From NCBI GenBank assembly GCA_965202665.1, contig OZ241841.1, positions 1,735,367 through 1,799,366 on the forward strand: a DNA stretch of 64,000 nucleotides, in the 5' to 3' direction. The notes beneath the pieces were generated by a model. The model made no database searches. It was not told the DNA's origin and saw only the letters and a list, made by a program, of their open reading frames with translations. Each line of letters opens with the position of its first letter. Position 1 is the stretch's first letter. The DNA comes from Candidatus Spongiisociaceae bacterium (GTDB lineage Bacteria > Actinomycetota > Acidimicrobiia > Spongiisociales > Spongiisociaceae). Of the stretch, positions 3,972 to 58,326 are shown piece after piece. Position numbers and translations under genes: made by a program.

Positions 3972-4021
3972 ATTCCGCTCCTCGCTCCAGGCCCAAAACA
4001 ATATGCTAGGCTCCGGGTAGT

Positions 4022-7000
4022 ATGAATGCTAAGGCTAACAGCAACCGGAACCACTCCTTCAAAGTAGGTGATTTCGTGCGATTGAAGGCCACAGGCGAGG
4101 TGGGGGTGGTTGTTGAGCTTATAGGAGACGACTTTGTAAAGGTCCAGTTCGCTGACGGCGCGAAGGTGGTAAATGCGGATGCTTTAGAACCCGCAGATAA
4201 GTCTCCAGTCGGCCCGGTCGGGTTGCTAGAAGGAGGCACACTCTCCGATAGTCGAGCTTTTGGTTTACGACTTCAGGCTGCTTACCTCCGACACGCTTAC
4301 CGATATGACCCTAAGTCTGGGCTGTCCAACGCCAGGGTGGAGCCCAAGCTACATCAAGTGTTCGCCGCCCATCGGGTAACCGGCAAGCTCTTTCCTCGGA
4401 TGATACTAGCTGATGAAGTTGGTTTAGGGAAAACTATAGAGGCTGGGCTCATTTTAAAAGAACTTCGGGCTCGCGAAGTCATTGATCGCGTTCTCGTGGT
4501 TTGCCCAGCCTCTTTGCAACGCCAGTGGCAATATGAGATGGAAACCAAATTCAATGAAGAGTTCGAAATATATAATAAAACCGCAGTTGATTTTCTCGGT
4601 AAGGACGGCAGTAATCCTTGGATGAAACGAAAGGGTGCCATAGCCTCCTATGAATTTGCCATCAAGCCAAGGAATATGGAACAAATTGTGGAAGCCGACT
4701 GGGATTTGATTATTTTTGATGAAGCACACCGGGTTAGAAGAACACGCGTCGGGAACAAATATAGAGAAACCAAGGCATACAAGATGGCTAAACTTCTACA
4801 AGATCGAGACTTTGGCTTATTATTGCTTACCGCTACTCCTATGCAATTACACCTATATGAGCTCTATTCCCTTATTGACTTGATTGATTCTAGCCTTCAT
4901 ATAGATTTTGCTGAATTTGAGGACAAGATGTTAGAAATACCTGATTTGAATGATGCGATGAAGGAACTACAAGAATGGCCGTCAGTTCATAAACATCAGA
5001 GGCTCAATGCCGTTGTACGTTGGGGTTTTAAAATGGGCTACTTGAGAAAAAAATCTGTTACCGATATTTTGAACGATGATGACAAGCGGGAGAAATTAAT
5101 TAACGACTTGGTCCAACGACATCCTGTGGCACAAGTTCTTATTCGCAATCGTAAGAGTACCATAGGTGGATTTAAAGGACGAATTGCCAATCGTATACCA
5201 GTAAAGTTAACAGATGAAGAATGGGAGTTGTATAATGAAATATCAGAATATATTCGGCTAGGTTATAACCGGGCTAACAAAGAGAAGAAGAGGGCGATTG
5301 GATTTACTATGACAATATATCAAAAACTCTTGACTAGTAGCTCGTACGCCCTCCGCGAAAGTTTCAGAAATCGGGTGACTAACCTAAAGAATCAAGATAA
5401 CGTAAGGCAAAAGGAAGCAATTACAGAAAATGGATTAAACGAATTACGTGAACTTGATGATATTTCTGAAGGATTAGATCATTTAGAACAGGACGACATA
5501 GATAATTCTGAACAGAAATCAGAAATACGGGAGCTAGAGGGATATATTGACCGCCTAAATCAGATAAGAGATTCGAAAGCGGACAAATTAATAAATGAAA
5601 TAGTATTGCCAATTCTGGATAAAAATTCCAGTGAGAAGATATTGATATTCACAGGTTTCGTCAATACACAGAAATTCCTGCAGAGAGTTCTTCAATCGAT
5701 TGGCTATGAGGTCACCATTTTCAATGGTCAGATGGACTTATCCGAGAAGGAGAAGTCGGTCCAGCGATTCAGACAACAAGCGCAGATTATGATTACAACA
5801 GAAGCAGGTGGCGAAGGTCGTAACTTTCAGTTTGCGCATATTATGGTAAACTATGATCTGCCGTGGAATCCGATGAAGGTTGAACAGCGGATCGGTCGTC
5901 TTGATCGAATTGGCCAAACTCGTAAAGTTCAGATATACAATCTTTATAGTGAGAGTACACTAGAACAGCGAATTTTAGATGTATTGGAATATCGTATTCA
6001 ACTCTTTACTCGGGCAGTAGGTTCATTGGATCCTATACTTGGCGAAGTAGAACGAGATTTAGAAAGAATTATTTTCGAGCATATGGACAATCTAGATGAG
6101 TATATGGAGAAATTCGAAAAAGATCTTGCGGAAAGAATCAAAGAAGCAAGGGAAACCGAAAAGTTATTGGGTGACTTTATTTTGGATCGTACTAGCTTGA
6201 GACAAGACGAGGCAAATATACTATTAGAACGATCTACGCTGGCTAGTTTTGATGACCTGCACCGATTTATTGAGGAAGCACTAAACTATTATGGAGGAAG
6301 ATTGAGTAAGCATAATAACGGAGGTGATTATTTAACATTGTCACCCAATCTAAGACACGATATTCAGGCTGACAGTACCAATGTTCGTGGAGTATTTGAT
6401 CCGAAGGAGGCACTGGAGTGGGAAGATTTAGATTTTTTCGCTTTCGGACACAAACATATTGACCGAATAGTAGACTATGTCTATAACCAAGATGCGAAGA
6501 CGGGGGTCCGTTTTTTACCAGATGCCCCCCCAGGAGTTACGATAGAGATAATATATGAGTACGAAAGTCGAAGACCCCTTCATACAAAGGGTCAAAGAGG
6601 ACCCTTTCATGCAAAAGGTCAAATGGTCCGACATCATATAGGACAAGACTTGCAAATCCATAGTGAAATGATTACAACCATACCTGCTGTGGGTCAGGCC
6701 TGTAACAGCAAAGTAGATGTACCAGAGTGGTTACCTAGTGCTTTGGAGATAAGCCAGCAGAGAGCTATCGAGGAATTGGAGCAGTTTCAAGAGAAGACAT
6801 ATAGGGAAGGATTACCAGAACGTAGAGGGATGGAAGAGCGTTACCGGCGGGTGTTTGCTCATCAGCGTAAACAGTTGAAAGCTAAGATAGAAAAAGCAAG
6901 GGCTTGGATAGATGAAAAAACACAAAGTGGCTCCGATGATGAAAAAAAGATTCTACCTGCCCAGCGAGCGAGGTTACGGCAAATGGAACAAGAACTTCAG

Positions 7001-7099
7001 AATCTAACCTCCGAGTTACAGCACAAAATTGAAGAATTGAATCGTCCGGCAGATATCATTCAGACGATTGTATCAGCAGGATTGGTAATGAGACAATGA
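4022..7099 (+). CDS. rapA: RapA/HepA-like SNF2-family ATPase (RNA polymerase-associated Swi2/Snf2 protein homolog) with N-terminal Tudor/KOW-like domain
   Basis: Motif I ILADEVGLGKTIEAGLIL, motif II IIFDEAHRV, motif III LLLTATPMQ and helicase-C EGRNFQFAHIMVNYDLPWNPMKVEQRIGRLDRIGQ closely resemble E. coli RapA. N-terminal KVGDFVRLKATGEVGVVVEL small beta-barrel. About 40% GC against a 70% flank. Confidence 0.8.
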   Translation: MNAKANSNRNHSFKVGDFVRLKATGEVGVVVELIGDDFVKVQFADGAKVVNADALEPADKSPVGPVGLLEGGTLSDSRAFGLRLQAAYLRHAYRYDPKSGLSNARVEPKLHQVFAAHRVTGKLFPRMILADEVGLGKTIEAGLILKELRAREVIDRVLVVCPASLQRQWQYEMETKFNEEFEIYNKTAVDFLGKDGSNPWMKRKGAIASYEFAIKPRNMEQIVEADWDLIIFDEAHRVRRTRVGNKYRETKAYKMAKLLQDRDFGLLLLTATPMQLHLYELYSLIDLIDSSLHIDFAEFEDKMLEIPDLNDAMKELQEWPSVHKHQRLNAVVRWGFKMGYLRKKSVTDILNDDDKREKLINDLVQRHPVAQVLIRNRKSTIGGFKGRIANRIPVKLTDEEWELYNEISEYIRLGYNRANKEKKRAIGFTMTIYQKLLTSSSYALRESFRNRVTNLKNQDNVRQKEAITENGLNELRELDDISEGLDHLEQDDIDNSEQKSEIRELEGYIDRLNQIRDSKADKLINEIVLPILDKNSSEKILIFTGFVNTQKFLQRVLQSIGYEVTIFNGQMDLSEKEKSVQRFRQQAQIMITTEAGGEGRNFQFAHIMVNYDLPWNPMKVEQRIGRLDRIGQTRKVQIYNLYSESTLEQRILDVLEYRIQLFTRAVGSLDPILGEVERDLERIIFEHMDNLDEYMEKFEKDLAERIKEARETEKLLGDFILDRTSLRQDEANILLERSTLASFDDLHRFIEEALNYYGGRLSKHNNGGDYLTLSPNLRHDIQADSTNVRGVFDPKEALEWEDLDFFAFGHKHIDRIVDYVYNQDAKTGVRFLPDAPPGVTIEIIYEYESRRPLHTKGQRGPFHAKGQMVRHHIGQDLQIHSEMITTIPAVGQACNSKVDVPEWLPSALEISQQRAIEELEQFQEKTYREGLPERRGMEERYRRVFAHQRKQLKAKIEKARAWIDEKTQSGSDDEKKILPAQRARLRQMEQELQNLTSELQHKIEELNRPADIIQTIVSAGLVMRQ

Positions 7100-8451
7100 G
7101 AAACGTACTTGCCTGTGGTATTGACTTTGGAACAACCAATAGCTCTGTATCGATCGCGTATGATAACGGCGATGTAGAGTTAGTTACTATTGACACTAGC
7201 ACGCCCATGCCCCGTAGCTTGTCATCCATTGCATATATAGATCGTGAAGATGCTAAGCAAGCAGGACAAGAAGCTGTTAAACAGTTTATGATTACCGGAC
7301 CTATTAGTACTTCTTGCGGTAATTGTGATTTAGTAGAGATAATCAAGTTTGGTGGTTTTGCACATTATGATACAGATTGTAAGCAACATCAGCCTGGGGG
7401 TAGGTGTCAGGACGCCCGTCTGGTTAGTGGAGTGAAAAGCTTACTAGCCCCCACTGAGAATGGTACTACCCATGCTTGGGCCAGGTATTTTGAATTGGAG
7501 GATTTTGTTGCGATCATAATAAAGGAGCTTAAGAAACGGGTTGATGATATAGCAGGTGCCAATATACGTAGAGTTGTTTTAGGATATCCAGTAACTTTCG
7601 TGGGTGCTGAAGGCTCAGATTATGAAAATCTACAGGAAGGGGCAGAGGGCAGACTACAACGAGCGGCAGAAAAGGCGGGGTTCACTGATATAGAATTATT
7701 TCCGGAACCAGCTGCTGTGTTGCTGGATCAATACTTGAAGGATGGATACATACTAGCGGTAGATTTTGGTGGTGGAACTTATGATGTGGCAGTCTTAGAG
7801 AACCAGGGAAGCGAGCCGGAGATCGTAGCACTTCAGGGTGCTACGATAGGTGGAGAAAAATTCGACGGTTTGTTGTTTGATAAAAAGGTGGCTGACGCTA
7901 TAGGTCTAAACCAGAAACCCAAAGGCAAAACTTTGCCCAAATGGATAAAGATTAATATGCGAACCTTGGCTGGCATCCCTATTTTACTCAAAAATCCGTT
8001 TCTTCTGTCCACCTTATTGAATTTTGAAAGTCTAGGAGCCAATATTGATGCCATTCGTGAGATTTTGTTTGGTGGTCATGCGTATAGTTTCTATACTGAA
8101 GTGGAGAGAGCTAAAATAGAATTATCCGAAAGCCAAGTAGCTCAGATTCGCTATCATGTGCAAGGCAGGATTGATGTATCAGCCACGGTATATCGGACTG
8201 ATTTCGATCGTTGGATAAGTTCATATCTTGACAGGGTTGATACCGCTACAATAACCGCCGTAAATGAGGCTGGTGTAGCACCTCAAGATGTCCATACCGT
8301 CTTACGAGCAGGAGGTTCATCAAAAATACCGCAATTTATTGACAGACTAGAATCTATATTTCCGAATGCGGAAATCAGGGAACGGGATGCGTTTACATCC
8401 GTGGCCTATGGCCTTGGTGTACATGCATTGGAGGTATGGGGTAATGTCTGA
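7096..8451 (+). CDS. Hsp70-family actin-fold ATPase, nucleotide-binding domain only (YegD-like), no substrate-binding domain
   Basis: Motifs GIDFGTTNSSV, VDFGGGTYDVAVLE and RAGGSSKIPQF match the Hsp70 NBD phosphate-1, phosphate-2 and adenosine motifs. The protein is 451 aa with no SBD. ATGA overlap with the helicase stop. Low GC. Confidence 0.75.
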   Translation: MRNVLACGIDFGTTNSSVSIAYDNGDVELVTIDTSTPMPRSLSSIAYIDREDAKQAGQEAVKQFMITGPISTSCGNCDLVEIIKFGGFAHYDTDCKQHQPGGRCQDARLVSGVKSLLAPTENGTTHAWARYFELEDFVAIIIKELKKRVDDIAGANIRRVVLGYPVTFVGAEGSDYENLQEGAEGRLQRAAEKAGFTDIELFPEPAAVLLDQYLKDGYILAVDFGGGTYDVAVLENQGSEPEIVALQGATIGGEKFDGLLFDKKVADAIGLNQKPKGKTLPKWIKINMRTLAGIPILLKNPFLLSTLLNFESLGANIDAIREILFGGHAYSFYTEVERAKIELSESQVAQIRYHVQGRIDVSATVYRTDFDRWISSYLDRVDTATITAVNEAGVAPQDVHTVLRAGGSSKIPQFIDRLESIFPNAEIRERDAFTSVAYGLGVHALEVWGNV

Positions 8452-9196
8452 TGACAAGCAAAAGCCTCGTGAGAGGATAAGGATTCCTACGCCCAAGGAG
8501 TTAGACGAGTCCGCTACCGGTGGACAGTCGGAACAGGATGAGCCTCAGGAGCAAAAGGGCGGTCGTGCCCGGTTCCGGCGGATCCGGATGCGGATGAGGG
8601 GAGGTGTGGGGCGGAACAAGAAAGTGCTAAAGGCTCCTCGACCTGATGTAGAGACAGTAGGGGAAGGTCCTCCGGATGGAAAAGACCCAGGAGATGTCGA
8701 GCCAGGTTTTATCGTCCCCTTATCTGAGCGGGTAATAGGGGATGAAGGTGGTCAGATACAAGAAGAGGCTGTTCTTCCGAGGCAGATACCGGGACGGATC
8801 CAGCCGTTCAAGGACGAGTTTAGCGAAGAGGATAAACAAGAGGATTCTTCTAGATCGCGTGTCCGTGCTGTCAAATTCTCACCTAAGATTAAGAAAAGGA
8901 AAGAGGAACCGGTTCCTGATGATGATGCAAAGAGGCCCAAGAGTCGTGAGGAGATAGCTCGGGATTTAGCTAGTCGTAATGCTCAAGAAAATGGTCATGA
9001 TATAGGTGACTTTTTCAAGCAGGTTCGCCCAGATCGCACTAAGCACTTTACAGCTACATGTAGAAAATGTGGTTTGGATATCATAGCTGTGGTGGAGCTT
9101 GATGATTATCAGGTAAAAGGACTTCCAGGAGTTATCGGGAAGGCTAAAAACAAAAGATGTACAGAAGAAGTTAAGAATAGAGGAGTCGGTCTTTAG
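8444..9196 (+). CDS. highly charged (K/R/E/D-rich) hypothetical protein with C-terminal Cys cluster (possible zinc ribbon)
   Basis: The start MSDDKQ at 8444 overlaps the Hsp70-like stop by 8 nt. About 250 aa of low-complexity charged sequence precede a C-terminal CRKCG...(26 aa)...C. Low GC. Last gene of the island. Confidence 0.5.
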   Translation: MSDDKQKPRERIRIPTPKELDESATGGQSEQDEPQEQKGGRARFRRIRMRMRGGVGRNKKVLKAPRPDVETVGEGPPDGKDPGDVEPGFIVPLSERVIGDEGGQIQEEAVLPRQIPGRIQPFKDEFSEEDKQEDSSRSRVRAVKFSPKIKKRKEEPVPDDDAKRPKSREEIARDLASRNAQENGHDIGDFFKQVRPDRTKHFTATCRKCGLDIIAVVELDDYQVKGLPGVIGKAKNKRCTEEVKNRGVGL

Positions 9197-9227
9197 GCGA
9201 TTCTTTGCGGACGTTTCGGGGGTTGGG

Positions 9228-10342: not shown

Positions 10343-10394
10343 AGAAATCCTCCGTTCCCTTCCCGGCTAGGCAACCCAACCATCCCAACCAAGT

Positions 10395-11099
10395 TCACAC
10401 GACGCGCAGGGGCGGCGACGGTTGGGAAAAGTCGGGCGGGGGGGAGCCTATGGCTACGAACATCCGCTCGGCGGCGAACACGCCCACCCCGACGTCTTTT
10501 CCTTTAACCCGCACGGTGAGGGCCCCCTGCGGGTCTTTCTGCACCAACTCCACCAGGGCATGCGGCCGCAGGTTGCTTTCGTCCAGGTAGCGCATCATTT
10601 CCGCATCCAGTTCCAACTCTTCCGAAATGCGCTCCAAAGGGTAAACGTCCCCCGGTTCCATTTCCGCCATCGGTTTCATCCGGGGCGGTTTGTATCCGGC
10701 TCCGGGGATGGGGTTGCCGTGCGGACAGGTTTTCGGGTCGTCCATCACCGCCCACATGGCGGCCTCCACATCGTCGGAGATCATCGTCTCCCAAACTTCC
10801 GCCTCCTCATGCACTTTCGCCCAGGGCAGGCGCAGCACCTCCGACAGGAAACGTTCCGCCAGGCGGTGGCGGCGCACGATCACCGCCGCCATATGGCGCC
10901 CTTCCGGGGTGAGCCGTATTTCATCCCCGATCGCCACCAGGCCTTCCTGTTCCATCCGGTGCACCATTTCCGACACGCTGGCCCGGCTCACCCCCAGCCA
11001 GTCGGAGATGCGGGCCTGGATGACGGGAATGCCCGCTTCCTCAATCTCCCAGACGGCCTCGGCGTATTCCCGGTAACGAACGGGGTAGGTGGCGTCCAT
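10395..11099 (-). CDS. DtxR/IdeR/MntR-family metal-dependent transcriptional regulator with C-terminal SH3-like/FeoA domain
   Basis: Strong similarity pattern to DtxR: IYEIEEAG-like HTH, RRHRLAERFL, KVHEEAEVWEHVMSD-like metal site and CPHGNPIPG. Confidence 0.8.
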   Translation of the reverse strand: MDATYPVRYREYAEAVWEIEEAGIPVIQARISDWLGVSRASVSEMVHRMEQEGLVAIGDEIRLTPEGRHMAAVIVRRHRLAERFLSEVLRLPWAKVHEEAEVWETMISDDVEAAMWAVMDDPKTCPHGNPIPGAGYKPPRMKPMAEMEPGDVYPLERISEELELDAEMMRYLDESNLRPHALVELVQKDPQGALTVRVKGKDVGVGVFAAERMFVAIGSPPPDFSQPSPPLRVV

Positions 11100-11164: not shown

Positions 11165-12457
11165 TCAGTCTTTGCCGGCCTCGTACATCCAGCGGTGACC
11201 GCCTTCAGCGGCCCGGAAGTTTGCGGTCCAGCCGCTGTCGGTCAGGAAGCGGTGGGCGGCCAGGGCGTAGATTTTGGCGGCCAGGGCGGGGCCGTCGGCG
11301 GACAGGTATTCGTTGGGGCTGTGCGCCCGGGGCAGCATTCCCGGCCCGAAGGCGGCCACGCACGGAATCCCGGCCGTCAACTGGAAATGGGGGGCGTCGG
11401 TGGCCCCCGGAAAGGCGTCCAGCCGGGGGGTTTCCCCCAGCACGTCCCGGGCGGCCGACAGCAAAGTCCCCACCACCGGATCCCCGGCGCTGATTTCGGT
11501 GGCGGGCACCATCCCCACCAGGGTCAGTTCGGCGTCCAACTCCGGGTCGTCGGCCTTCGCCGCCGCCAGAAACCGCTCAATGTCGGCCCGCATCTCCTCT
11601 TCGGTCATTCCGGGCAGGGTGCGGATGTCGCAGGCGAATTCCCCCCGCCCCGGATAAACCCCGAAGAAAACCCCCCCGGACACCATCACCCCCACGTTCA
11701 CGGTGGGGGCCGGGCACAGGGGATGCGGTTCGTAGGTCAGATAGGACAGCAATTCCCGGTCCATCCGTTGGATGAGCCCCGCCATTTTCACGGTGGCGTT
11801 CACCCCTTTGATGCGGTCGGAGATGGAAGAATGCATTTGCGTGCCCCGCACCGTCACTTTCAACAGGCACGCCCCCCGGGAAACCAGATGCAGGGACTCC
11901 CATTCTTTTTCCACCCCCGCCGGTTCGCCGATGATGGCCGCGTGGGCTTCCAACAACCCGTTTTCGGCCAGCCATTGCGCCCCCAGGGCCGACCCGGCTT
12001 CTTCGTCGGCGGTGAAAACCGCGGTGAGCCGCCCCGGACGGCCGGGGTGGGCGGCTATCGCCCCCATGGCGTACACGATCCCCGCCACCGCCGCTTTCAT
12101 ATCCCCCGATCCCAAGCCGATCAGGTCTTCGCCCCGCACCACCGGATCCCACGGGTCGGTTTCCCACGCTTCCATGTCCCCGGCCGGTTTGGTGTCGATG
12201 TGGCCGGACAGCATCAGGGTCGGCCCTTCCTCGTCCCCGTCCACCTGCGCGATCAGGTTGGGCCGTTTTTCTTCCGCCCCCGCCCGCCGCACTTCGGTCA
12301 CGCCCAAGTCGGCCAGCCGGGAGGCAACCAGTTCGGCCACCGCCCTTTCGTCCCCCGGCGGGTTGGGGGAGGGGACGGCGATCAGGTCGCGGGCGAACTG
12401 CAGGATTTCGCCTTCCCGTTCTTCCAGGTAGGCCAGCAGGTTGCGTTCGACGGTCAT
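11165..12457 (-). CDS. M20-family metallopeptidase (ArgE/DapE-like deacylase)
   Basis: LMLSGHIDTKPAG, GSGDMKAAVAG and M20 metal-ligand spacing; 430 aa. Confidence 0.8.
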   Translation of the reverse strand: MTVERNLLAYLEEREGEILQFARDLIAVPSPNPPGDERAVAELVASRLADLGVTEVRRAGAEEKRPNLIAQVDGDEEGPTLMLSGHIDTKPAGDMEAWETDPWDPVVRGEDLIGLGSGDMKAAVAGIVYAMGAIAAHPGRPGRLTAVFTADEEAGSALGAQWLAENGLLEAHAAIIGEPAGVEKEWESLHLVSRGACLLKVTVRGTQMHSSISDRIKGVNATVKMAGLIQRMDRELLSYLTYEPHPLCPAPTVNVGVMVSGGVFFGVYPGRGEFACDIRTLPGMTEEEMRADIERFLAAAKADDPELDAELTLVGMVPATEISAGDPVVGTLLSAARDVLGETPRLDAFPGATDAPHFQLTAGIPCVAAFGPGMLPRAHSPNEYLSADGPALAAKIYALAAHRFLTDSGWTANFRAAEGGHRWMYEAGKD

Positions 12458-16880: not shown

Positions 16881-17357
16881 ATGATGGCAATGATGGGCAG
16901 AACGGTTTCCTGCTTGTTGTCCAGTGTTATGTTCTGGACTGCTCTGTCTGTTCCTGGTGGACAGGACGCTGATGATCTGCCTGCCTGCGGACACCCAGAA
17001 TGTTATCCAACATTTTGTCAGGTGTTTAACGATCCTGATAATGTCCATGATAAGTTAAAAATGTTGTCTAATGAACATAAAATACAGATTATCAGTTTCC
17101 TGATAAGTGTCCGTAAATATAGGGATAAACTAAAACGCTATCCAATACAAAACTTGGAAAATATTCTGTATGAAATATTACGACAGTCAGTTGACGCAAA
17201 TAGCATATCTGCTTATATCAGACAACAGAATATTGGAAATGACAAAGTAACAAAAATACTGTGGTATACTATAGACTTACCAGGTGTCAGGTTGTCTATA
17301 ATAGATAACCCAACGGCTGAACAACTGATAATATTAGATATAGATTTGGATAATTAA
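16881..17357 (+). CDS. hypothetical protein, low-GC (about 38%) gene with hydrophobic N-terminus
   Basis: Clean ORF in an AT-rich patch that contrasts with the genome. Possible signal peptide MMAMMGRTVSCLLSSVMFWTALSVPG. Confidence 0.4.
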   Translation: MMAMMGRTVSCLLSSVMFWTALSVPGGQDADDLPACGHPECYPTFCQVFNDPDNVHDKLKMLSNEHKIQIISFLISVRKYRDKLKRYPIQNLENILYEILRQSVDANSISAYIRQQNIGNDKVTKILWYTIDLPGVRLSIIDNPTAEQLIILDIDLDN

Positions 17358-17382
17358 AACAACAGAGCAGAGGAGGAAAACA

Positions 17383-17616
17383 ATGGAAGATAATCCGTCT
17401 GCCGCTAGCACTATGGCAGATAACATCTATCAGGCCATCCAGGAACAGGTCAGTCAGGCTCTGGATGATGTCCTGGATAGGGTTATCCGGGATGCGGGCA
17501 CTGATGTGGAAATCAGGGCCGCCCGTCCTGCTGATGAATGTCCTGCCTGCCACAGGACATTAGACCCGGAAACCAGCAGGTCTGTTCTGACCAGTCAGGC
17601 TGATAACGCTGCCTGA
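17383..17616 (+). CDS. small acidic hypothetical protein (paralogous N-terminus to ORFs at 49960-50184 and 50368-50700)
   Basis: Shares the N-terminal pattern M-A/T-D/E-N/Q...Q/A-rich with two small ORFs in the second CAGG/CCTG-rich locus. Confidence 0.35.
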   Translation: MEDNPSAASTMADNIYQAIQEQVSQALDDVLDRVIRDAGTDVEIRAARPADECPACHRTLDPETSRSVLTSQADNAA

Positions 17617-17797
17617 CATTCCAGAGCCTGGTCTATCCAAGCCTGATATGCAGAAATGCTGACCTGTGGTCAAGAGCCTGCTGAAATCCAATCGGACAGG
17701 CACAGGCCTGCGGGCAGTGTTTCCAGGATAGCCTGGTGCCTGTCCAGGTCTGACCATTCCCGAGCTGCCGTCGCAGGTCTGCCAGAGCCTGTTTCCT

Positions 17798-18005
17798 GCT
17801 GTTTTTGGGGTGGGGTCCTCCATTATGGTTTTGGTGGGGTTGGATAGGGTTGAGGTGGTAGGGGCGGAGGAGACGGGCCGGGCGGTTGACGGGGGCGGGG
17901 GCGGGCGGCGGCGTTGTGGGGGATGGGGGCTTTGGTGGGACTATAATGGGCGTTAAGGCGCCGGATTTGGCGACGGCGGTGTTATTCTGCCGTTTCAACC
18001 CTCGG
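17798..18005. mobile_element. ISL3-like element remnant (left-end region only)
   Basis: ttggggtggggtcctccat...ggttgaggt.g...ggcggaggagacgggcc matches 51028-51165, immediately upstream of the ISL3 transposase fragment. Copy 1 carries internal deletions. Confidence 0.35.
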
Positions 18006-18039
18006 GGTGACGGGGGCGGGCCGCAAGTACGGAGGAAGC

Positions 18040-20457
18040 ATGCGGGACCAGGCACAAGTTGTCATCGTCGGCGGCGGGGCCATGGGGGTGGGGTTGCTCT
18101 ACTTTTTGGCCCACGAAGGGTGGACGGATGTCCTGCTGGTGGAAAAAGACGAGCTGACCTCCGGTTCCACTTGGCACGCGGCGGGCCTCACCCCGCATTT
18201 CATCGGAGACCTCAACTATTCCAAGGTGCACCGCGACACCATCGACCTGTACAAGGTGATCGAAGAGGAAACCGGCCTGCATTCCGGATGGCACGGTTGC
18301 GGGGCGGTGCGTTTGGCCCGCACCCGGGACGAGTCGGACTGGTTTCACTACGTCAAAGGCATTTTGGACTACAACGGGGTGGAATGCCATCTGCTGAGCC
18401 CCCGGGAAGTCACCGAGGTGGCCCCCCTGCTGGATGTGGAACCCGATGTGACCCTCGGTTTCTGGACTCCGGGCGACGGCTGGACCGACCCGTCGGCCGC
18501 CGCCAACGCCATGGCCGCCGGGGCCCGCAATTTGGGGGCGGAGATCAGCCGCCGCAACCGGGTGACCGACATGAACCAGCTGCCCGACGGAACCTGGGAG
18601 GTGATCACCGAAAAAGGCCGGGTGACGGCCGAACATGTGGTGAACGCCGCCGGATCCTACACCCCGCAACTGGGGGCGATGGTCGGTTTGGAGGTCCCCA
18701 TGGAGTCGGTCATCCACCAATACCTGGTCACGGAACGGATTGCGGAGGTGGCCGCCTTGGACAAGGAGCATCCGGTGGTGCGCGACCCCCGCTCCTCCTG
18801 TTATTACCGGCAGGAGCACGACGGGCTGATCATCGGCCCCTATGAACGGGAGGGGGCCAAAGAATACGGAACGGAGGGCATCGACTGGGATCTGACTTTC
18901 CATCTCACCCCGGTGGAGTTGGAGCGCCTGTTGCCCTGGCTGGAGTTGGCCGCCGCGCGCCTGCCCTGTTTCGCCGGGGCGGGGGTCAAACAGGTGGTGT
19001 CCGGCCCGATCACCCACACCCCGGACGCCGGCTTCCTGCTGGGCCCCGCCCCCGGGTTGCGCAACTACTGGTACTGCGCGGGGGCTTCCATCGGCATAAC
19101 CCAGGGGCCGGGGGCGGGCAAATACCTGGCGCAGTGGATGGTGCACGGCCAGACCGAAATCAACGTGGGGGGAATGGATCCCCGCCGTTTCGGCCCCTAC
19201 GCCCCGGGCCGCTACACCCACGAACGTTCCATCGACGAGTTCCACGAGATGTACCAGGTGCGGATGCCCAACGAGTACCGCCCGGCCGGGCGGCCCATGA
19301 AAACCACCCCCCTCTACGACGTCTTAGATAGCAAAGGGGCGCAGTGGCAGGAGGTGTGGGGATGGGAGCGGGCCATGTATTTCGCCCCCGAACCGGAGCA
19401 GTATTCTTTCCGCCGTTCCTCCGCCCATGATTTTACGGGCCGGGAGATCCGGGCCGTCCGCCGCAACGTAGGGGTGGCCGACCTGACCGCCTTCTCCAAG
19501 TTTGAAGTCACCGGTCCGGATGCGGCCGCCCTGCTGGACCGCTTGGCGGCCAACCGGCTCCCGGCCCGGGACGGCGGAATGCGCCTGGTGCATATGCTGA
19601 CCGACTTGGGCGGCATAGAAGCCGAAATGACCATCACCCGCTTGGGCGAGCAAAGGTTTTACCTCAATTCGGGCATCACCGGCCAGTGGCACGACTTCGA
19701 CTGGCTGGTTTCCCACATCCGCCCCGGCGAGCAAGCCCAAGTCACGGACGTGACCGACCGGCGGGGGATTTTGGCGGTCACCGGCCCCCGTTCCCGCGTT
19801 CTTCTCCAAAAGCTCACCGCCGCCGACCTGTCCAACGAGGTCTTCCCGTGGCTGACCGGCCGGGAGATGGAGGTGGCGGGCGCCCCCTGCCTGGGGTTGC
19901 GGGTTTCCTATGTGGGGGAGTTGGGATGGGAGCTGCACCTTCCCCTGGAGAACCTGGCCGACGTGTATCAGGCGGTGCAGGAGGCGGGCGCCCCGCTGGG
20001 TCTGGTCGATTTCGGGAGCCGGGCGATGAACATCATGCGCTTGGAGAAGGGATATAAGGCTTTCGGGGCCGAGCTGACCACCGAAATCACCCCGGTGGAG
20101 GCCCGGCTGGGGCGGTTCGTGGATTACGACAAGGATTTTCTGGGCAAACAGGCGACCGTCGCCCGCCGCGACCAAGCCGAGCCGTTGGACATGGTGCTGG
20201 TGTACGCCGAATTGGACGCATCCGACGCCGACTGCCTGGGCAATGAACCGGCCTACGACGGGGAGAGGATCATGGGCGTCACCACCAGCGGGGCCTGGGC
20301 CCATTCGGTGGACCGCAGCATCCTGTTCGCCTACGTCGATCCCCGATTCGAATCCCCCGGTTCCGCTTTTCAGGTGGGGGTGATGGGCGAACGGAGGGAG
20401 GCGGCCGTGTTGGCCGAACCGGTCTGGGATCCGCAAAACCTGCGGATCAGGGGCTGA
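18040..20457 (+). CDS. dimethylglycine/sarcosine dehydrogenase-family flavoprotein (FAD DAO domain + GcvT-like folate-binding domain)
   Basis: Start at MRDQAQVVIVGGGAMGVG (RBS GGAGGAAG). The DAO fold is followed by an aminomethyltransferase-like C-terminal region (RLEKGYKAFGAELTTEITPVEARLGRFV). 805 aa. Confidence 0.85.
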   Translation: MRDQAQVVIVGGGAMGVGLLYFLAHEGWTDVLLVEKDELTSGSTWHAAGLTPHFIGDLNYSKVHRDTIDLYKVIEEETGLHSGWHGCGAVRLARTRDESDWFHYVKGILDYNGVECHLLSPREVTEVAPLLDVEPDVTLGFWTPGDGWTDPSAAANAMAAGARNLGAEISRRNRVTDMNQLPDGTWEVITEKGRVTAEHVVNAAGSYTPQLGAMVGLEVPMESVIHQYLVTERIAEVAALDKEHPVVRDPRSSCYYRQEHDGLIIGPYEREGAKEYGTEGIDWDLTFHLTPVELERLLPWLELAAARLPCFAGAGVKQVVSGPITHTPDAGFLLGPAPGLRNYWYCAGASIGITQGPGAGKYLAQWMVHGQTEINVGGMDPRRFGPYAPGRYTHERSIDEFHEMYQVRMPNEYRPAGRPMKTTPLYDVLDSKGAQWQEVWGWERAMYFAPEPEQYSFRRSSAHDFTGREIRAVRRNVGVADLTAFSKFEVTGPDAAALLDRLAANRLPARDGGMRLVHMLTDLGGIEAEMTITRLGEQRFYLNSGITGQWHDFDWLVSHIRPGEQAQVTDVTDRRGILAVTGPRSRVLLQKLTAADLSNEVFPWLTGREMEVAGAPCLGLRVSYVGELGWELHLPLENLADVYQAVQEAGAPLGLVDFGSRAMNIMRLEKGYKAFGAELTTEITPVEARLGRFVDYDKDFLGKQATVARRDQAEPLDMVLVYAELDASDADCLGNEPAYDGERIMGVTTSGAWAHSVDRSILFAYVDPRFESPGSAFQVGVMGERREAAVLAEPVWDPQNLRIRG

Positions 20458-20458: not shown

Positions 20459-22021
20459 ATGGCCGACCGCCGCCGCGCCGGGGGAAGGGCCGCCCGGATG
20501 GCCGCCCGGGCCGCCCCGCTGGCCGAAGAGGAACGCCCGGTTCGGCCCGGTTTGCCGGGCGGGGCTTTCAAGCCGCTGTCCGAATCCGACTGCCAACAGG
20601 TTTACGAGACGGCCCTGGTCCTGCTGGAGGAGGTGGGGGTGGCGGACCCGGTCCCCGAATTCATGGAAGCGGTCACCGGGGCGGGCGGATGGATGGACGA
20701 AGGGGGGCGGCTCCGCTACCCGCGGGGGGTGGTGGAAAAGGTCATCACCGAAACAGCCGCCCGGAGCTGGGTGTGGCACGGCTTGGACGAAGACCGCAGC
20801 ATAGAGGTTGGCGGCGACAAGGTCCATTTCGGCACTTCGGGGGCGGCCGTTTTGATGCTGGATTACGAAAACCGCTCTTTCCGCCCCACCACCACCGCCG
20901 ATTTGTACGACGCCGCCCGATTGGTGGACGTTTTGGAGCACATCCATTTTTTCGTCCGCACCGTGGTGACCAGGGATCTGGAAACCCCCCGGGAGGTGGA
21001 TCTGAACACGGCCTACGCGGTGATGATGGGCACTTCCAAACCGCAGGGCGTCTCTTTTTTCAAACCGGAGAACGTCTACGAGGCGGTGGCGATGTACGAC
21101 CACGTTTTAGGAGGGGAGGGGGAGTTTCGCCGCCGCCCGTTCGTCGCCGCCAACAACACCTTCGTGGTGCCGCCGTTGCGTTTCGCTTACGAGTCCACCG
21201 AATGCATGGTGGCCCAGATCGACGCCGGGATGCCCGTCAAACTGCTTTCCGCCGGGCAGGCGGGGGCCACTTCCCCGGCGGCCTTGGCCGGTTCGCTGGC
21301 GCAGGCCTTGGCCGAATGCCTGGCCGGCCTGACCAGCGTCAACCTGCTTTCCCCCGGTCATCCCTGCTCGTTGGACATGTGGCCGTTCGTGTCCGATCTG
21401 CGCACCGGGGCGATGAGCGGCGGGTCGGGGGAGGAGGCGGTGATGACCGCCGCCGCCGCCCAAATGGTGAACTGGCTGGATCTGCCGTCCGGGGTGGCGG
21501 CGGGGATGGCCGACTCCAAACTTCCCGACGGCCAGGCCGGATACGAGAAGGGGATCACCACCGTCCTGGCCGGGCAGGCGGGGGCCAATTTGATCAACGA
21601 GTCGGCGGGGATGCTGGGTTCCCTGCTGGTGTTTTCCCTGGAGTCGCTGGCGGTGGACAACGACATGCTGGGGGCGGCCAACCGCACCATCCGCGGCGTG
21701 GAAGTCAACCCGGATTCCCTGTCTTTGGAAACCATCAAAGAGGCCATCTTCGGCCCCGGCCATTTCCTGGGTTCCGAGCAGACCCTGCGCCTGATGCAAC
21801 GCGACTACGTGTACCCGCAGGTGGGGGATCGCAACAGCCCCGACGATTGGCGGGATCAGGGGGCGACCAACGTGGCGGAACGGGCGGGGGAGTACGTGCG
21901 CAAAGTGATGCGCACCCATTTCCCCGCCCACATCAGCCGGGAGCAGGACGCTTGGATTAGGGAGCGGATGCCCATCGCCCTGCCCGCGGACGAGGTGGTC
22001 GGCCTCGGAACCCGCTGGTAA
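20459..22021 (+). CDS. MttB-superfamily (non-pyrrolysine) methyltransferase, glycine betaine/trimethylamine:corrinoid methyltransferase-like
   Basis: About 500 aa. N-terminal LSESDCQQVYETALVLLEEVGV fits the MttB TIM-barrel family. No in-frame amber codon. Immediately downstream of the DMGDH-like gene, 1-nt gap. Confidence 0.65.
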   Translation: MADRRRAGGRAARMAARAAPLAEEERPVRPGLPGGAFKPLSESDCQQVYETALVLLEEVGVADPVPEFMEAVTGAGGWMDEGGRLRYPRGVVEKVITETAARSWVWHGLDEDRSIEVGGDKVHFGTSGAAVLMLDYENRSFRPTTTADLYDAARLVDVLEHIHFFVRTVVTRDLETPREVDLNTAYAVMMGTSKPQGVSFFKPENVYEAVAMYDHVLGGEGEFRRRPFVAANNTFVVPPLRFAYESTECMVAQIDAGMPVKLLSAGQAGATSPAALAGSLAQALAECLAGLTSVNLLSPGHPCSLDMWPFVSDLRTGAMSGGSGEEAVMTAAAAQMVNWLDLPSGVAAGMADSKLPDGQAGYEKGITTVLAGQAGANLINESAGMLGSLLVFSLESLAVDNDMLGAANRTIRGVEVNPDSLSLETIKEAIFGPGHFLGSEQTLRLMQRDYVYPQVGDRNSPDDWRDQGATNVAERAGEYVRKVMRTHFPAHISREQDAWIRERMPIALPADEVVGLGTRW

Positions 22022-45025: not shown

Positions 45026-48000
45026 TTATCGGGTGATCTGGTAAACAGTCAGCAACGTGCCGGCTTCGACAGACTCTCGTATCCCGGAGTACAGGGTGCC
45101 GGAGGTCTTGTCGTAGGTGGTCGCCCATCCCATACGGGCGTTAACCCGGGGACCCAAGAACTCTTCGTCCGGTGTGCTGTCGGAGGCCCATCCAGTAGCG
45201 GGCTTCGTGAATGTCACCACCGAACCCCGGAAGTCGCCTTCCTGCCGATAATGACGACCGGACGCGATCTCCGAACCGTCGCCTTTGATGGCAATGTACT
45301 GGCCGAACACATCCTGGTTTCTGGGGGACGACACGGTCAGATCAAATCCTGTTGTCGCTTCCTCCGAATCCGCTTGAGTGTCAACGTGCCAACTTTCCCA
45401 GCTCGTGCCGGGCCTGACGTACACACGTATCGTCCCGGGCACATTTCTAGGACTAGTCTGACCCTGGTAGTGGTTGGAGACGACCAGGGTTGTCCCGTCA
45501 TCGGTGAGAGCCAAGTACTTGGCAAACTGAGTTCCGCTACCACCCATTCCGCGATTGCGGATGCGAGCACCGTCGGTTCCTGAACCTCCGTCGGACTGGT
45601 CCGCCCAGCCGCCAGCAGGCTTCTTATACACGTATATCCATCCTCCGGTATTGCCAGCGGCGATCGTCTCCCCATCCCCGGAGATAGCAATGGCCCGTTC
45701 GTTGCTATAGCCATTCCCGATTCTCAGTTCAGGTTCATCAGCGTGAGTGGCATCGGCAGCCCAGCCCGTGCCGGGCTCTTCATATACCACTATCCTTCCT
45801 TCGTTGCCCTGGTCGTCAGCCCCGATCACCGCAATGGTGGAACCGTCGTCGGATATGGCAACTCCCTCTCCGAACCCCTGGCCGAAATCGGCATTCTCAG
45901 TACTCGGATTCGGGGACAATATCTTAGTAGTGGTGGTCGGCCAACCAGCACTCTCCTTTTCATAAATGTAGACCTTCCGCAACCCTCTTTGCCCCGCGGG
46001 CAACTGATGGTGGTATCGGGTTCCGACGACGATGGTGTCGCCTGCGATGTCCACGTCGTGTCCGAAGAAGCCGTTGGCTACGATATCCGTGGCTGGGGGG
46101 GTAAGTTTGACGATGTTGCCGGCGGCGGTGTTCATCCCGTTGGGGTAGATGTACACCATCCCCGCGTTAGTACGCGTCACGTCATCAGTTTCCATGCAAG
46201 TGGCCAGAGCGTCGCGGCAGGAGCCCATTTGCACCACAATGGTTTCTCTGGGGGCTCCGACGACTATTACTCCGTTGTCGGCTGCTACCGCCTCCCCAAA
46301 TCTGGCGGCGGCTCCGTCTTCTGCCCCGTCGGGGTGGTTGAGGCTGGGCCATTCCTCCTGCAAAGCGAAGGTGCTGACTTTGCCCGCTTCGTCCTGGTAG
46401 GCGGTTACTTTCAGGTGAGCCCCCGCCGGGTCGGCGTCCTCCGCTAAGGGTTTCTCGAACTCGGCCATCACGGTGGGTCCGTCGAAGTTGGAGAACTGGT
46501 CGTTGGCGTCGTATTTGACCAGCATCAGTTTCTCCTCAGCGGCTACTACCAGCTGGTCGTTGTCGGGGTCTTTCACCAGGATGCGGCCGGTGAACGGCGC
46601 CCCGTCCGGTTCCTCCACCCAGTAATGGTAGACACGAGCCTCATGGGAGTTCAGATCAATGTCGACGCCGTCGTTTTCAGGCCGATCTTCGCTACCGTCC
46701 GCTACTCCCACCACCTCGCTGAAGGTGGCCCAGATGGTTTCGATGACGCTGTCGGTGCTGTCGTAGTTGTAACCGAGGTTGGCCCGGCCGTCCCGTCCGG
46801 TGGTCCGCGTATACCGGCCCGTACCCGACAGCGTACGCTTCCCGCCGGATGAGCCGACGGTGATACCGGCGGGCGCGGTGGAACCCACCCCCAAAATAAC
46901 GGAGCAATCCGCGTCCTCATCTTTGGCCTTGGTGCACAAAGAGTCGGAAAGGAAACTGATCCGTTTGCCGCGTACTGGGTCGCCGAACTGGTCGGTCAGT
47001 GTGGCCGTGACCGTGTTGCCGGCCCCTTGGCCTTCGTCCGACGCCAGAACGAACTCGTTGCGGGATGTGACCGTCAGCGTGGCCGGCCTCGGCGCTTCGT
47101 CCGACCAGCTGTAGGTGTCGGAGGAGAAGTCGCTTCCGTCCTCGTTTTTGAACGGCAACCCGGCCGGCGGGTTGGTCAACGTCAACGTCACCGTCGCGCT
47201 GTCGCCGGTGTTGGTGCTGGGATCGGTTTGGGTGAATTCCAAAACGATTTTCCCGTCGGCGTCGGTCGTCATGCTGTTGGTGGAGGACGTGGTGTTGTCC
47301 CCCACCGTAGTGCTCTGCGCGACGGTTACCCGTTTGCCTTTGTCGGCTACGGCTTTGTCGTCCGGGTCGGCGATTTGGATGGTGACGGTGACGGTTTCCC
47401 CGAACTTGGAGCGGGTCTGCCCTTCCTCCAAGTTGTCGGTCACCAAAGTTTGGGTGGCCGCTTTGGAGAACCCGACGGTCAGTTGGGCGCGGGTGGTGTC
47501 ATCGGAGTCGAACTTGTCGCCCCGGTCGCCGGTCCAGGCCCACACCGTCGCGTCCGCGTCCGTGATCTGCAAGGACAAATCGGTGAGGTCCCCCGACGCG
47601 TCGGTGGTGCTGTCCCCCAAATCCACCTCGCACGCCGTCTGCCCCACTTGCCCCACCCGATTCACATTCGCCGTAACGCACGCCCCGTCGTCCCCGAACG
47701 CCTCATCCGCGTCAGCGGAACGGAACACGTCCACCGACGCGTCCTGCACCGGCTGGAAGTTCACATCCCGCACCGACACAATCAACGGCACGCCCTGCGC
47801 CCCCAGCACCATATCCTGCTCGCTCTGAATCGACACCCCCGCCGGACGGGCGATGGTATGAGCAAACGCCCGGGTGATGAACGACGCCATCTGCCCCCGC
47901 GTTACCAGCCCGGCCGGGTTGAACTGATGTTCCGCCACCCCTTTCGTGACCCCCAGCTCGTAAATGCGGTATATGGCGTTGTAGGTGTTCAGCGACACCG

Positions 48001-48570
48001 TGTTCACATCCGTGAACACGTTGAAGTTGTCGGCTTTTACATCCGCGTACTTCTCCGTCGCTTCCCCGAACGCCCCCGTCCCCGGAGTGGCCTTGGAAAG
48101 GAACGCGTCCAGCAGCATCGCCATGGAACCCCGGTTCACTGACGAATTCGGGCTGAACGTCGTCGCGGACGTGCCGGGCATGATCCCTTCTTTGGCTAAA
48201 CCGTTGATGGCGTTTTGGGCCTCTTCCGACACCGCGCTGATGTCCGTGAACCCCTGATCCTCAGCCGGGTTGTCCAACACGATCCCCGCCGCCATCGACG
48301 CCCGGGCCAAAAACAGGGCCATCTGCCACCGCAGCACCGACTCCGACGGAGCGTACATGGTCTCCGACCGGCCTTTCGTGATCCCATAATGGAACAAGCA
48401 ATCAATCGCCTCCTCCGCGCCGATGCCCGCCGTGTCCTCAAAACCGGCCGAATCCGTCGCCCGCCCCACGCACGCCGAATACATGGGAGCGAAATCAATG
48501 TCCTCCTCCTCCCCATGCGTCCCCACCGCACCCGGAGGAGAAACCCCCAACAAACTCACCACCAAACCGG
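45026..48570 (-). CDS. SLH-domain surface-protein paralog with a distinct C-terminal propeller variant; 5' end (signal peptide/start) disrupted by a poly-G tract and IS481 fragment
   Basis: Identical to the 40750 protein from VVSLLGVSPPGAVGTHG through ..PVRGKRI, then divergent. Ends ..LLTVYQITR. There is no start codon, RBS or promoter; the sequence runs into GGGGGGGGGGGGGCGGCGGGGGGGGGGGGG at 48571-48601. Confidence 0.65.
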
Positions 48571-49210: not shown

Positions 49211-49420
49211 AGTCCCAGCCTGAATTAGGATGTCCAGGTTTCCAGGCCATCAGCAGGCACCATCATCCAGGCTGTATATGACCTCTGGTTCAGCCTGTGC
49301 CTGGTCAGGCTGATAGTGGTCTGTGGCATACACAGGCAACAGGTATCTGACCTGCTGTTTGTTGGATGTAGCAGGTTTCTGCTGTGGATGGCCGCAATGA
49401 GGGGGGCTAGGCTCTGCTGG

Positions 49421-49912: not shown

Positions 49913-49959
49913 ACTGGATTGCCATTTGGATGTTCTGCTGGTCAGACATCAGGCCTGTC

Positions 49960-58312: not shown

Positions 58313-58326
58313 GAGCGGAAGGGACG

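Follow-up and report, generated by a model that had tools for sequence, protein, structure and literature searches.

A conserved operon of an SNF2 ATPase, a nucleotide-binding-domain-only Hsp70 and a charged tail protein, with a possible role in genetic conflict, in a low-GC island of a Candidatus Spongiisociaceae bacterium

Introduction

We analysed a stretch of 64,000 nt (the window) from the forward strand of a Candidatus Spongiisociaceae genome (Actinomycetota, Acidimicrobiia; assembly GCA_965202665.1, contig OZ241841.1, positions 1,735,367 to 1,799,366). Near its start lies an island of low guanine plus cytosine (GC) content that consists of exactly three genes, located between a divergent alpha/beta hydrolase gene and a convergent short-chain dehydrogenase/reductase (SDR) gene. 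Gene 1 encodes a Swi2/Snf2 (SNF2) ATPase of the BrxHII/RapA class, gene 2 an Hsp70 that consists of the nucleotide-binding domain (NBD) only, and gene 3 a charged, largely disordered protein that we call the tail protein. Here, we describe this operon, its relatives in other genomes and its possible function. Loci and protein homologues from other genomes carry L and P numbers, and the positions of all main features are collected in Table 1.

Results

A low-GC operon between two metabolic genes

The operon has a GC content of 0.437, and the adjoining 4-kb stretches have 0.673 and 0.662. In a 400-nt sliding profile both flanks lie at 0.65-0.70 and the values fall to 0.36-0.46 across ~4400-8400 and 8800-9200, with the middle of gene 3 (8400-8800) at 0.56. 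The right edge is sharp, the host level being regained within ~200 nt of the stop codon at 9196. At the left edge the change is gradual, with no step at 4010: the first ~190 SNF2 codons have a GC content of 0.50-0.56. A preliminary description of this DNA had spoken of a sharply bounded low-GC island; the low GC and the right boundary are borne out, and the left boundary is gradual. Its further observations, that the three genes are tightly coupled through an ATGA and an 8-nt overlap and that the motifs DEVGLGKTIEAG, EGRNFQFA, QRIGRLDRIGQ and CRKCG...C occur in the products, can be read directly in the sequence.

The left junction presumably holds the operon promoter; a scan of it for the sigma-70 consensus gave nothing above chance. 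At the right junction, a terminator scan stayed at chance level and yielded no terminator-like site. The genes in the flanks encode an ABC transporter, the hydrolase, the SDR, a repressor and peptidases. We found no integrase in these flanks, no tRNA or tmRNA in the whole 64-kb window and only chance-level repeats at the borders of the island, in agreement with the preliminary description. The hallmarks of an integrase-mediated genomic island, an integrase, a tRNA/tmRNA target and flanking direct repeats, are thus absent.

Table 1 Positions of the operon, its parts and the related loci (window coordinates unless a locus is named).
Feature	Position	Strand	Basis or remark
Whole island	4022-9196	+	Three-gene operon, ~0.44 GC
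Left junction	3974-4021		~48 nt, likely from the start of the divergent alpha/beta hydrolase gene to the SNF2 ATG
Gene 1, BrxHII/RapA-class Swi2/Snf2 ATPase, 1025 aa	4022-7099	+	Pfam, PADLOC, NCBIfam, PDB
Single N-terminal SH3-like (Tudor/KOW-type) barrel, aa 8-72	4043-4237	+	Five-strand pattern, 17 orthologues
SNF2 motif I (Walker A), DEVGLGKT, aa 131-138	4412-4435	+	Invariant in 17 orthologues
SNF2 motif II, DEAH, aa 233-236	4718-4729	+	Invariant in 17 orthologues; sequence GATGAAGCACAC read in the window
SNF2 motif VI, QRIGRLDRIGQ, aa 622-632	5885-5917	+	Sequence; invariant in 17 orthologues
ATGA stop/start overlap of genes 1 and 2	7096-7099	+	Read in the sequence
Gene 2, Hsp70 NBD only, 451 aa	7096-8451	+	Pfam, model, Foldseek
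Four-cysteine insertion in NBD lobe I (C74, C77, C95, C104)	7315-7407	+	Invariant in 26 homologues
8-nt overlap of genes 2 and 3, ATGTCTGA	8444-8451	+	Read in the sequence
Gene 3, charged, largely disordered tail protein, 250 aa	8444-9196	+	From the ATG at 8444
Invariant N-terminal peptide of gene 3, IPTPKELD	8483-8506	+	Family pattern [IVL]P[TS][PSGA]x[ED][LIF][EDQ]
Basic-aromatic segment of gene 3, RARFRRIRMRMRGGVG	8564-8611	+	Type conserved across all variants
C-terminal head of gene 3, small alpha+beta domain	8942-9193	+	Invariant His185, Cys206, Cys209, Cys239 (H-x20-C-x2-C-x29-C)
Right junction	9197-9227		~30 nt, from the gene 3 stop to the end of the convergent SDR gene; GC back at host level
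Islands compared at the same site	window 4022-9196; L001 5600-10723; L083 4963-9800		
Solo Hsp70 branch	L112; L117 9824-11116; L118 5239-6534		Beside phosphoenolpyruvate carboxykinase
RecD-like helicase, ~1100-1230 aa	L096 6850-10536; L098 2196-5900; L101 8160-11837		PDC-S68 match (E = 0 for the best in this and the next row)
RecD-like helicase, further loci	L103 11595-14963; L128 12986-16279		PDC-S68 match
TrwC relaxase-helicase adjoining the trio	L104 10167-14075		

The trio is conserved as a unit

All eight loci that were reached through close homologues of the Hsp70 or of gene 3 carry the SNF2-Hsp70 pair. A metagenome scan with clade-specific patterns, which covers the closer subset of the clade, added 38 loci, and 33 of the 43 decidable loci have the SNF2 gene directly upstream of the Hsp70 of the clade. 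Nine of the ten exceptions belong to one derived sub-branch in which the Hsp70 stands solo, and in the tenth (L090) the operon has decayed and retains gene 3. As a control set, a scan with generic Hsp70 patterns gave 80 loci, two of them clade members and 78 YegD/DnaK-like, and an SNF2 relative was found within 10 kb in none of these 78. Approached from the other side, relatives of the SNF2 protein fall into >120 clusters (90% clustering) at 45-93% identity, and the three that were sampled all have the Hsp70 directly downstream and gene 3 as well.

Of 17 orthologous loci, 16 retain the 4-nt overlap between the SNF2 and Hsp70 genes. Pairwise identities of the two proteins correlate with each other (r = 0.95 overall, 0.52 among distant pairs), and their adjacency holds down to 34-45% identity, in unrelated genomic contexts. 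Judged from these sequence comparisons, the trio is a conserved unit whose genes travel together. The proposal in the preliminary description that the genes move as a unit thus gains support from the wide retention of their adjacency. The same description had named non-conservation of the pair in other genomes as the result that would speak against it, an objection that falls away because the adjacency is conserved there.

An SNF2 ATPase close to BrxHII and RapA

Gene 1 matches the Pfam families SNF2-rel_dom (8e-24) and Helicase_C (3e-21). Its best PADLOC models are those of BrxHI/BrxHII (3e-108 and 3e-78, aligned to model positions 305-953 of 971), followed by DrmD (6e-81) and HmaA. The scores against curated NCBIfam models are 352.4 bits for the RapA equivalog NF003426 (cut-off 576) and 303 and 268 bits for the DrmD models NF038317 and NF038318 (cut-offs 610 and 950); as all of them lie under the cut-offs, the protein reaches no curated family. 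In a PDB search, the closest solved relative is Escherichia coli RapA (E = 2e-67). A profile of 17 SNF2 orthologues matched RapA at 3e-99 and aligned to residues 114-447 and 500-836, and RapA_C Pfam matches occur in SNF2 homologues. The SNF2 motifs I, II, III, V and VI are invariant in the 17 orthologues.

Only ~70 residues precede the part that aligns with RapA, and they hold one barrel-like unit. All matches of this N-terminal barrel are weak: 0.011 for an Spt5 KOW domain, 0.013 for the Tudor domain of PcrA/UvrD, and 4e-4 for the SH3 domain of MutS2/Smr, the last in 5/13 members. The resemblance to RapA that had been stated for this protein therefore holds, with RapA as the best solved relative, and membership in the RapA family does not, given 352 against 576 bits and one barrel. 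Compared with its allele in L001, gene 1 has a ratio of nonsynonymous to synonymous substitution rates (dN/dS) of 0.23.

Some SNF2 orthologues of 1129-1133 aa carry an N-terminal PadR-type DNA-binding domain (L129 316-3717; P0277, P0279 and P0282, the last representing 30 sequences), which hints at self-regulation or DNA targeting.

A separate clade of NBD-only Hsp70 proteins

Gene 2 matches the NBD part of the Pfam HSP70 profile only (2e-25). Searches with Pfam, a structural model and Foldseek detected no linker, beta substrate-binding domain or lid in its 451 aa, and the operon contains no gene for a J-protein or GrpE. In the AlphaFold model of a natural fusion homologue, the NBD, including the cysteine insertion, has a predicted local distance difference test score (pLDDT) of >90, and Foldseek matches it to Hsp70 NBDs only (TM score ~0.7). 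The residues D10, T13, E204, D223, T228 and D230 align with D8, T11, E171, D194, T199 and D201 of DnaK. Among 26 homologues, D10, E204, D223, T228 and D230 are invariant and T13 is at least 90% conserved, and the phosphate-1, phosphate-2 and adenosine motifs are invariant as well.

The best NCBIfam model for gene 2 is the YegD equivalog PRK11678 (1e-34), and the score of 120.2 bits against the YegD equivalog NF008673 is under the cut-off of 331. The four-cysteine insertion, which presumably binds metal, is modelled as confident beta structure in the fusion homologue and is absent from YegD-like outgroups. By alignment and profile, gene 2 is a member of its own Hsp70 clade, apart from the YegD-like proteins. 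The earlier label of a YegD-like, NBD-only Hsp70 is thus right about the domain content, and membership in YegD is contradicted by the score (120 vs 331 bits) and by the cysteine insertion. An exhaustive profile search of 1.84 billion representatives gave ~40-55 full-length clade members at 50% clustering, and beyond these the profile scores grade into YegD-like proteins that have no insertion. The dN/dS of gene 2 is 0.32.

One sub-branch of the four-cysteine clade is solo, with neither an SNF2 gene nor a tail protein, and lies beside the gene for phosphoenolpyruvate (PEP) carboxykinase (three cases confirmed, Table 1); in L118 a YCII protein and a sigma-70-family gene are also nearby. Its solitary setting suggests a separate, possibly housekeeping, use of the NBD. 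An unbootstrapped neighbour-joining tree places this branch inside the coupled clade.

A YegD-like Hsp70 from outside the clade (30% identity) was observed in L087 (8001-11264) and L088 (418-3681), where two conserved genes with no assigned function, for products of 417 aa and 186 aa, come after it. In L087, a Type ISP restriction enzyme and Mrr-like nucleases are encoded beside it. The cluster may be another Hsp70-centred module.

A tail protein with a constant N-terminus and a variable head

Searches of Pfam, PADLOC, NCBIfam and PDB gave no match for gene 3, and its dN/dS is 0.65. It has only ~25 close relatives, on contigs whose lengths agree with those of contigs that carry Hsp70 matches, and an exact look-up of the window's gene 3 gave no recorded contig. 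When the genes that follow the Hsp70 were compared across all loci, they proved to form a single family in which the N-terminal module is constant. The peptide pattern of this module (Table 1) has 24 matches in 47 loci. Every match lies 27-45 nt beyond the point where the Hsp70 alignment ends and shares its strand, and nowhere else in 1.03 million six-frame residues does the pattern occur; the peptide is also present in three further loci, L127-L129. Overlaps of a few nucleotides between genes 2 and 3 recur at other loci. In the fusion model, a short helix is predicted at the equivalent of the basic-aromatic segment, and the linker is disordered.

The C-terminal part varies among a domain with one histidine and three cysteines (His+3Cys), a short IRIDPSVKERRGLG tail and Trp-rich repeats. 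The His+3Cys head is found in the window type and in L002, and among the fusions in one copy in P0031 and in two in P0032. The Trp-rich repeats are fused to the Hsp70 in L124 and L125, and Hsp70 and tail protein form a single chain in P0012, P0014, P0031 and P0032. A zinc ribbon, as which the C-terminus had been described, was rejected: such a fold is a rubredoxin-like ribbon with two CxxC or equivalent knuckles on beta-hairpins, and the head is a small His+3Cys domain; the charged and largely disordered nature of the protein is confirmed. In L127 (12394-12964) the tail gene was skipped by the public gene call, with the motif and a full open reading frame (ORF) present 27 nt after the Hsp70 stop, and gene 3 is probably often unannotated.

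Old alleles at a single site

The same arrangement of hydrolase gene, operon and SDR gene, with different alleles, is found in L001 (a 2.76-Mb contig) and L083 (a 41-kb scaffold), which come from other samples. The flanking proteins are 93-99.6% identical, as compared with 79-81% for SNF2, 70-86% for Hsp70 and 48-53% for gene 3 in the island, and the synonymous divergence (dS) is 0.23-0.51 inside the island and 0.01-0.11 in the flanks. These dS values, together with the dN/dS of 0.23, 0.32 and 0.65 for the three genes, indicate that the genes are functional and that the alleles are much older than the surrounding chromosome.

The GC content at third codon positions is 0.32-0.41 in the three alleles, against 0.83-0.86 in the flanks. 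Polarised AT-to-GC and GC-to-AT changes number 285 and 287 in the SNF2 gene and 53 and 53 in the N-terminal half of the Hsp70 gene, where a bias of the host type would predict ~8:1. Balanced changes of this kind mean that there is no amelioration and that the low GC is at equilibrium. A simple recent acquisition with ongoing amelioration was accordingly rejected, as alleles separated by a dS of 0.2-0.5 show balanced change. The preliminary description had taken the low GC as a classic sign of horizontal acquisition; the composition is indeed foreign, and the absence of amelioration makes that explanation too simple. The persistent low GC could result from repeated import of divergent alleles from low-GC sources or from selected AT-richness.

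Genomic neighbourhoods and mobility

We compared 111 flanking ORFs from 19 loci, and three more neighbourhoods; the sample consists mostly of soil metagenome contigs, and many of the loci are related to one another. McrB and McrC are adjacent to the trio in three of the 22 neighbourhoods (L004, L101 and L105), joined in L105 by an Eco57I-type methylase. In L086, DrmB (4e-82) and DrmC (1e-62) lie directly upstream of the SNF2 gene, and in L084/85 a Type II methyltransferase (9e-152) takes the place of gene 3 in the same orientation. Other neighbours include PDC-S37/Hhe, GmrSD-like, NERD-kinase, HNH and DruE-like genes, a helicase with an MTES_1575 restriction endonuclease (REase) domain, and UvrD. 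A PDC-S68 match is adjacent in six or seven loci, with varying orientation to the trio (Table 1); this type of neighbour might act together with the trio, form a system of its own or mark a mobile element. BREX genes were found in none of the 22 neighbourhoods.

The GC content of the operon is at or under that of its flanks in 18 of 19 loci. Related genomes hold the module at different insertion sites, and in a related lineage a version with 48% identity occupies another site nearby. In L129 a tyrosine integrase lies two genes from the trio. Relatives of the Hsp70 clade were absent from 72,556 PLSDB plasmid records at E <= 1e-40, from 50,697 INPHARED phage records at E <= 1e-20 and from IMG/VR viral contigs.

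Other variable features of the window

Close to the site of the island, L001 carries a HicA toxin gene and an 86-aa partner (11635-12151) between the SDR gene and an iron-dependent repressor gene. The equivalent position in the window (~10361-10399) has only ~38 nt, which makes this a small toxin-antitoxin indel. A second foreign-looking low-GC patch was observed in the window just after the YjeF gene (16881-18055; 0.48 GC at 17-18 kb) and holds two ORFs with no Pfam match. At the same post-YjeF position, L001 and L083 have a 957-aa, weakly PglX-like gene, and L084/L085 a separate SNF2-Hsp70-methylase copy, so that it looks like a second variable hotspot. Further low-GC patches (0.50-0.53) lie at 49000-51000 and 58300-61000, and the sole Pfam match among their ORFs is a weak DUF6036 nucleotidyltransferase-like one at 58956-59720.

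An uninterrupted gene for a 520-aa MttB-family methyltransferase is located at 20459-22021 (+ strand), adjoining a DAO/GCV_T fusion gene at 18007-20457. Inside it, at 21506-21605, Rfam reports the pyrrolysine insertion sequence PYLIS_3 (60.9 bits). Because the gene has no in-frame stop, its product is probably a non-pyrrolysine protein, and the PYLIS_3 match probably reflects similarity of coding sequence. S-layer homology and FG-GAP repeats occur in a 1179-aa protein encoded at 45026-48565 (- strand), which is a possible clue to the type of cell envelope of the host.

Comparison with known systems

The SNF2 class of gene 1 is that of BREX type 3, BR, ARMADA and DISARM. BrxHII, its best PADLOC family, belongs to the same length class (~1000 aa) and has a published layout of a single Tudor domain, the Swi2/Snf2 core, an inactive REase-like domain and, at the C-terminus, an alpha+beta domain with coiled-coil helices (PMC12839542). 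Gene 1 may follow a similar layout, with a single Tudor-like barrel, the core, a RapA-like C-terminus and long terminal helices. However, BrxHII works with a BrxC/DUF499 ATPase, with a methyltransferase (PglX/BrxXI) and in most cases with PglZ; the operon in the window neither contains these genes nor has them nearby. In type 3 BREX, BrxA and BrxF are encoded alongside as well. BrxHII systems have neither an Hsp70 NBD nor a disordered tail protein, Hsp70 being unmentioned in PMC12839542. BrxHII-class helicases are accessory components of the described systems (PMC12839542, PMC12458937). DISARM class 1 and ARMADA share the SNF2 class with gene 1 (DrmD/ArmA). They differ in their partners: DISARM has an operon of DrmA, DrmB and DrmC/DrmMI, and no Drm gene is present in the window, while ARMADA has a YprA-family helicase with an MZB domain and a PglX-like methylase, which are absent from the window operon and its flanks (PMC12458937). 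Neither has an Hsp70 component (PMC12458937). RapA (HepA), which associates with RNA polymerase and promotes its recycling, resembles gene 1 in its intact core motifs and in an alignment that reaches into the RapA C-terminal domains. It has a tandem pair of Tudor-like domains at the N-terminus (~107 aa), whereas gene 1 has one barrel and aligns from ~114, and it is encoded by a core gene, whereas gene 1 is mobile and accessory. RapA is not known to have an Hsp70 or a tail protein as partner.

YegD shares with gene 2 the restriction to the NBD. The YegD-like proteins of Pseudomonas and relatives have 24-29% identity to gene 2, lack the four cysteines and have no SNF2 neighbour. NBD-only Hsp70s such as YegD are widespread; a 2026 review regards the function of these paralogues as open and proposes Hsp110-like roles (PMC13580251). 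DnaK has the same catalytic Asp, Thr, Glu and Asp residues as gene 2, but also a substrate-binding domain and a lid, and works with DnaJ and GrpE. Hsp70-like ATPases in predicted defence are known from CnuD of CoCoNuT type III and from Hsp70-McrB fusions (PMC11090510). CnuD combines the NBD with a substrate-binding domain and HEAT repeats, has degenerate Walker motifs and acts with McrBC-type GTPases, namely an NxD-type McrB with McrC homologues, and with HEPN RNases (PMC11090510). Gene 2, in contrast, stands alone, has intact catalytic residues and an SNF2 partner, and is encoded next to McrBC only occasionally. DnaK-like fusions to EACC1-protease modules, also predicted to act in defence, have no SNF2 component (bioRxiv 10.1101/2025.11.14.688446).

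As the defining partners are absent, membership in CoCoNuT, ARMADA, DISARM or BREX was rejected, and so was any known system of PADLOC-DB v2.0.0, in which only the SNF2 protein has matches, all to generic helicase models. The eukaryotic remodellers INO80, SWR1 and BAF contain SNF2 motors with actin/Arp modules. By analogy, they resemble the operon in combining an SNF2 motor with a protein of the ASKHA fold (actin/Hsp70). However, their partner is actin, in place of an Hsp70-type NBD, no HSA helix was identified here, and homology of the two partnerships is unsupported. In the literature, subscription journals being largely outside the search, we found no description of an SNF2 protein paired with an NBD-only Hsp70. 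This accords with the preliminary description, which knew of no such system, and PADLOC-DB has none either.

Discussion

The module is most likely an SNF2-based defence-island module with a partner set that has not been described. With about even confidence, we see in the island a copy of an autonomous three-gene module that is widespread, moves horizontally and most likely has its role in genetic conflict (anti-phage or anti-plasmid). Such a role, which we infer and which the preliminary description had named as an option, fits the neighbourhoods that contain defence genes.

Our confidence in any detailed division of labour among the three proteins is much lower. They would form one complex, in which the SNF2 subunit would be the working motor that tracks along DNA and, in a RapA-like manner, pushes or strips protein-nucleic acid complexes. 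Gated by nucleotide, the Hsp70 NBD might serve as the switch between the off and on states of the motor. The constant N-terminal module would tie the tail protein to the NBD and leave the variable head to recognise a target or trigger. Since most copies have no methyltransferase or nuclease, discrimination between self and foreign would rest on the head or on neighbouring restriction modules.

Several observations weigh against an autonomous conflict module. The case for defence is one of guilt by association, drawn from neighbourhoods, and several of the adjacent defence matches (PDC-S68, relaxase-like helicases) may merely mark mobile elements. In the window itself there is no defence gene within 7 kb of the operon, whose neighbours are metabolic and transport genes, and the neighbours in L002 are metabolic, too. 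The operon encodes no recognisable nuclease, methyltransferase or toxin, and genes 2 and 3 have no match in PADLOC-DB v2.0.0 at E <= 0.01. The solo sub-branch beside PEP carboxykinase implies that this NBD can work without SNF2, and docking of the gene 3 peptide on the NBD in cis is not predicted in the fusion model (pLDDT <50).

A bolder version of the conflict reading, which is speculative and which we consider distinctly improbable, would make this the first prokaryotic SNF2 motor with an obligate partner of the actin/Hsp70 fold. The NBD would be no chaperone and would dock as a nucleotide-gated regulatory subunit, and the exchangeable heads of the tethered, disordered adaptor would sense phage or plasmid components and thereby license the eviction of polymerase or replication complexes from foreign DNA.

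The operon might instead be a plug-in cassette, an accessory motor plus regulator that works only with an adjacent restriction module such as McrBC, DrmABC of DISARM, a Type II or PglX-like methylase or PDC-S68, in the manner of BrxHII and DrmD in BREX and DISARM. The SNF2 gene of L086 occupies the position of DrmD, directly after DrmB and DrmC, and the abutment on McrBC in L004, L101 and L105, the Type II methyltransferase that follows in the same orientation in L084/85 and the PDC-S68 neighbour in six or seven loci point the same way, as does the fact that BrxHII-class helicases are always accessory in the described systems (PMC12839542, PMC12458937). Yet the trio is the one constant element, with partners that change between loci; the window, L001, L002 and L083 have no such partner next to it, and the orientation of the PDC-S68 gene varies. 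We think this reading unlikely. A further possibility is a RapA-like remodeller without any role in defence, which would recycle or remove stalled RNA polymerase or other nucleoprotein complexes under stress, with the Hsp70 as a dedicated cofactor or as an Hsp110-like nucleotide-exchange partner that recruits the host DnaK. RapA is the closest solved relative of gene 1 over ~720 residues, and this, the weak likeness of the N-terminal barrel to RNA-polymerase-binding KOW and Tudor domains, the lack of a nuclease or toxin, the housekeeping neighbours in the window and L002, the position of the solo Hsp70 branch next to PEP carboxykinase and a sigma factor, and the Hsp110-like roles proposed for NBD-only Hsp70s (PMC13580251) are all in keeping with it. 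It accounts poorly for the patchy, mobile distribution with foreign composition and variable insertion sites, for the extreme allelic divergence at one site, for the recurrence of defence and mobile-element neighbours and for a variable head of the kind typical of recognition modules. Gene 1 is moreover under the RapA equivalog cut-off, with one barrel against the two of RapA, and we hold the remodeller to be a rather remote prospect.

The same mobility could serve the vehicle and not the host, if the trio were cargo of integrative and conjugative elements that helps the element by protecting or remodelling its incoming DNA, in anti-restriction or establishment, or by excluding competitors. 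The TrwC relaxase in L104, the RecD/TraA-like helicases scored as PDC-S68 in several loci, the tyrosine integrase two genes away in L129 and the foreign GC content are consistent with this. The plasmid, phage and IMG/VR collections, however, contain no relative at the thresholds used, the window island has no mobility gene, repeat or tRNA, and divergent alleles occupy one site in otherwise near-identical chromosomes; we judge a benefit to the element alone very unlikely. Finally, the abrupt compositional contrast is the single feature that would be expected from an assembly artefact, a low-GC segment joined in from a low-GC contaminant, an alternative that the preliminary description had itself raised. 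Two independent assemblies, L001 and L083, hold the operon at the same site with different alleles, and a chimera was rejected on this ground. The junctions are tight gene-to-gene intergenic regions, and the GC content of the module is reduced in several unrelated hosts, which leaves the artefact a negligible probability.

Conclusions

If the bolder version of the conflict reading is true, the operon would represent a new logic of bacterial immunity that uses neither methylation nor a nuclease and has a remodeller as its effector. It would also provide the first function for YegD-like NBD-only Hsp70s and a functional parallel to the actin/Arp modules of eukaryotes. A BrxHII/RapA-class motor that occurs without methylase or nuclease partners offers a simpler system for studying the poorly understood role of this motor, and the fixed SNF2 partner, the tethered adaptor and the natural fusions make the function of an NBD-only Hsp70 directly testable. 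The stable low GC content at one site with very old alleles is a clean case for how foreign composition persists in a genome. The module is not rare, and it is missed by current defence finders.

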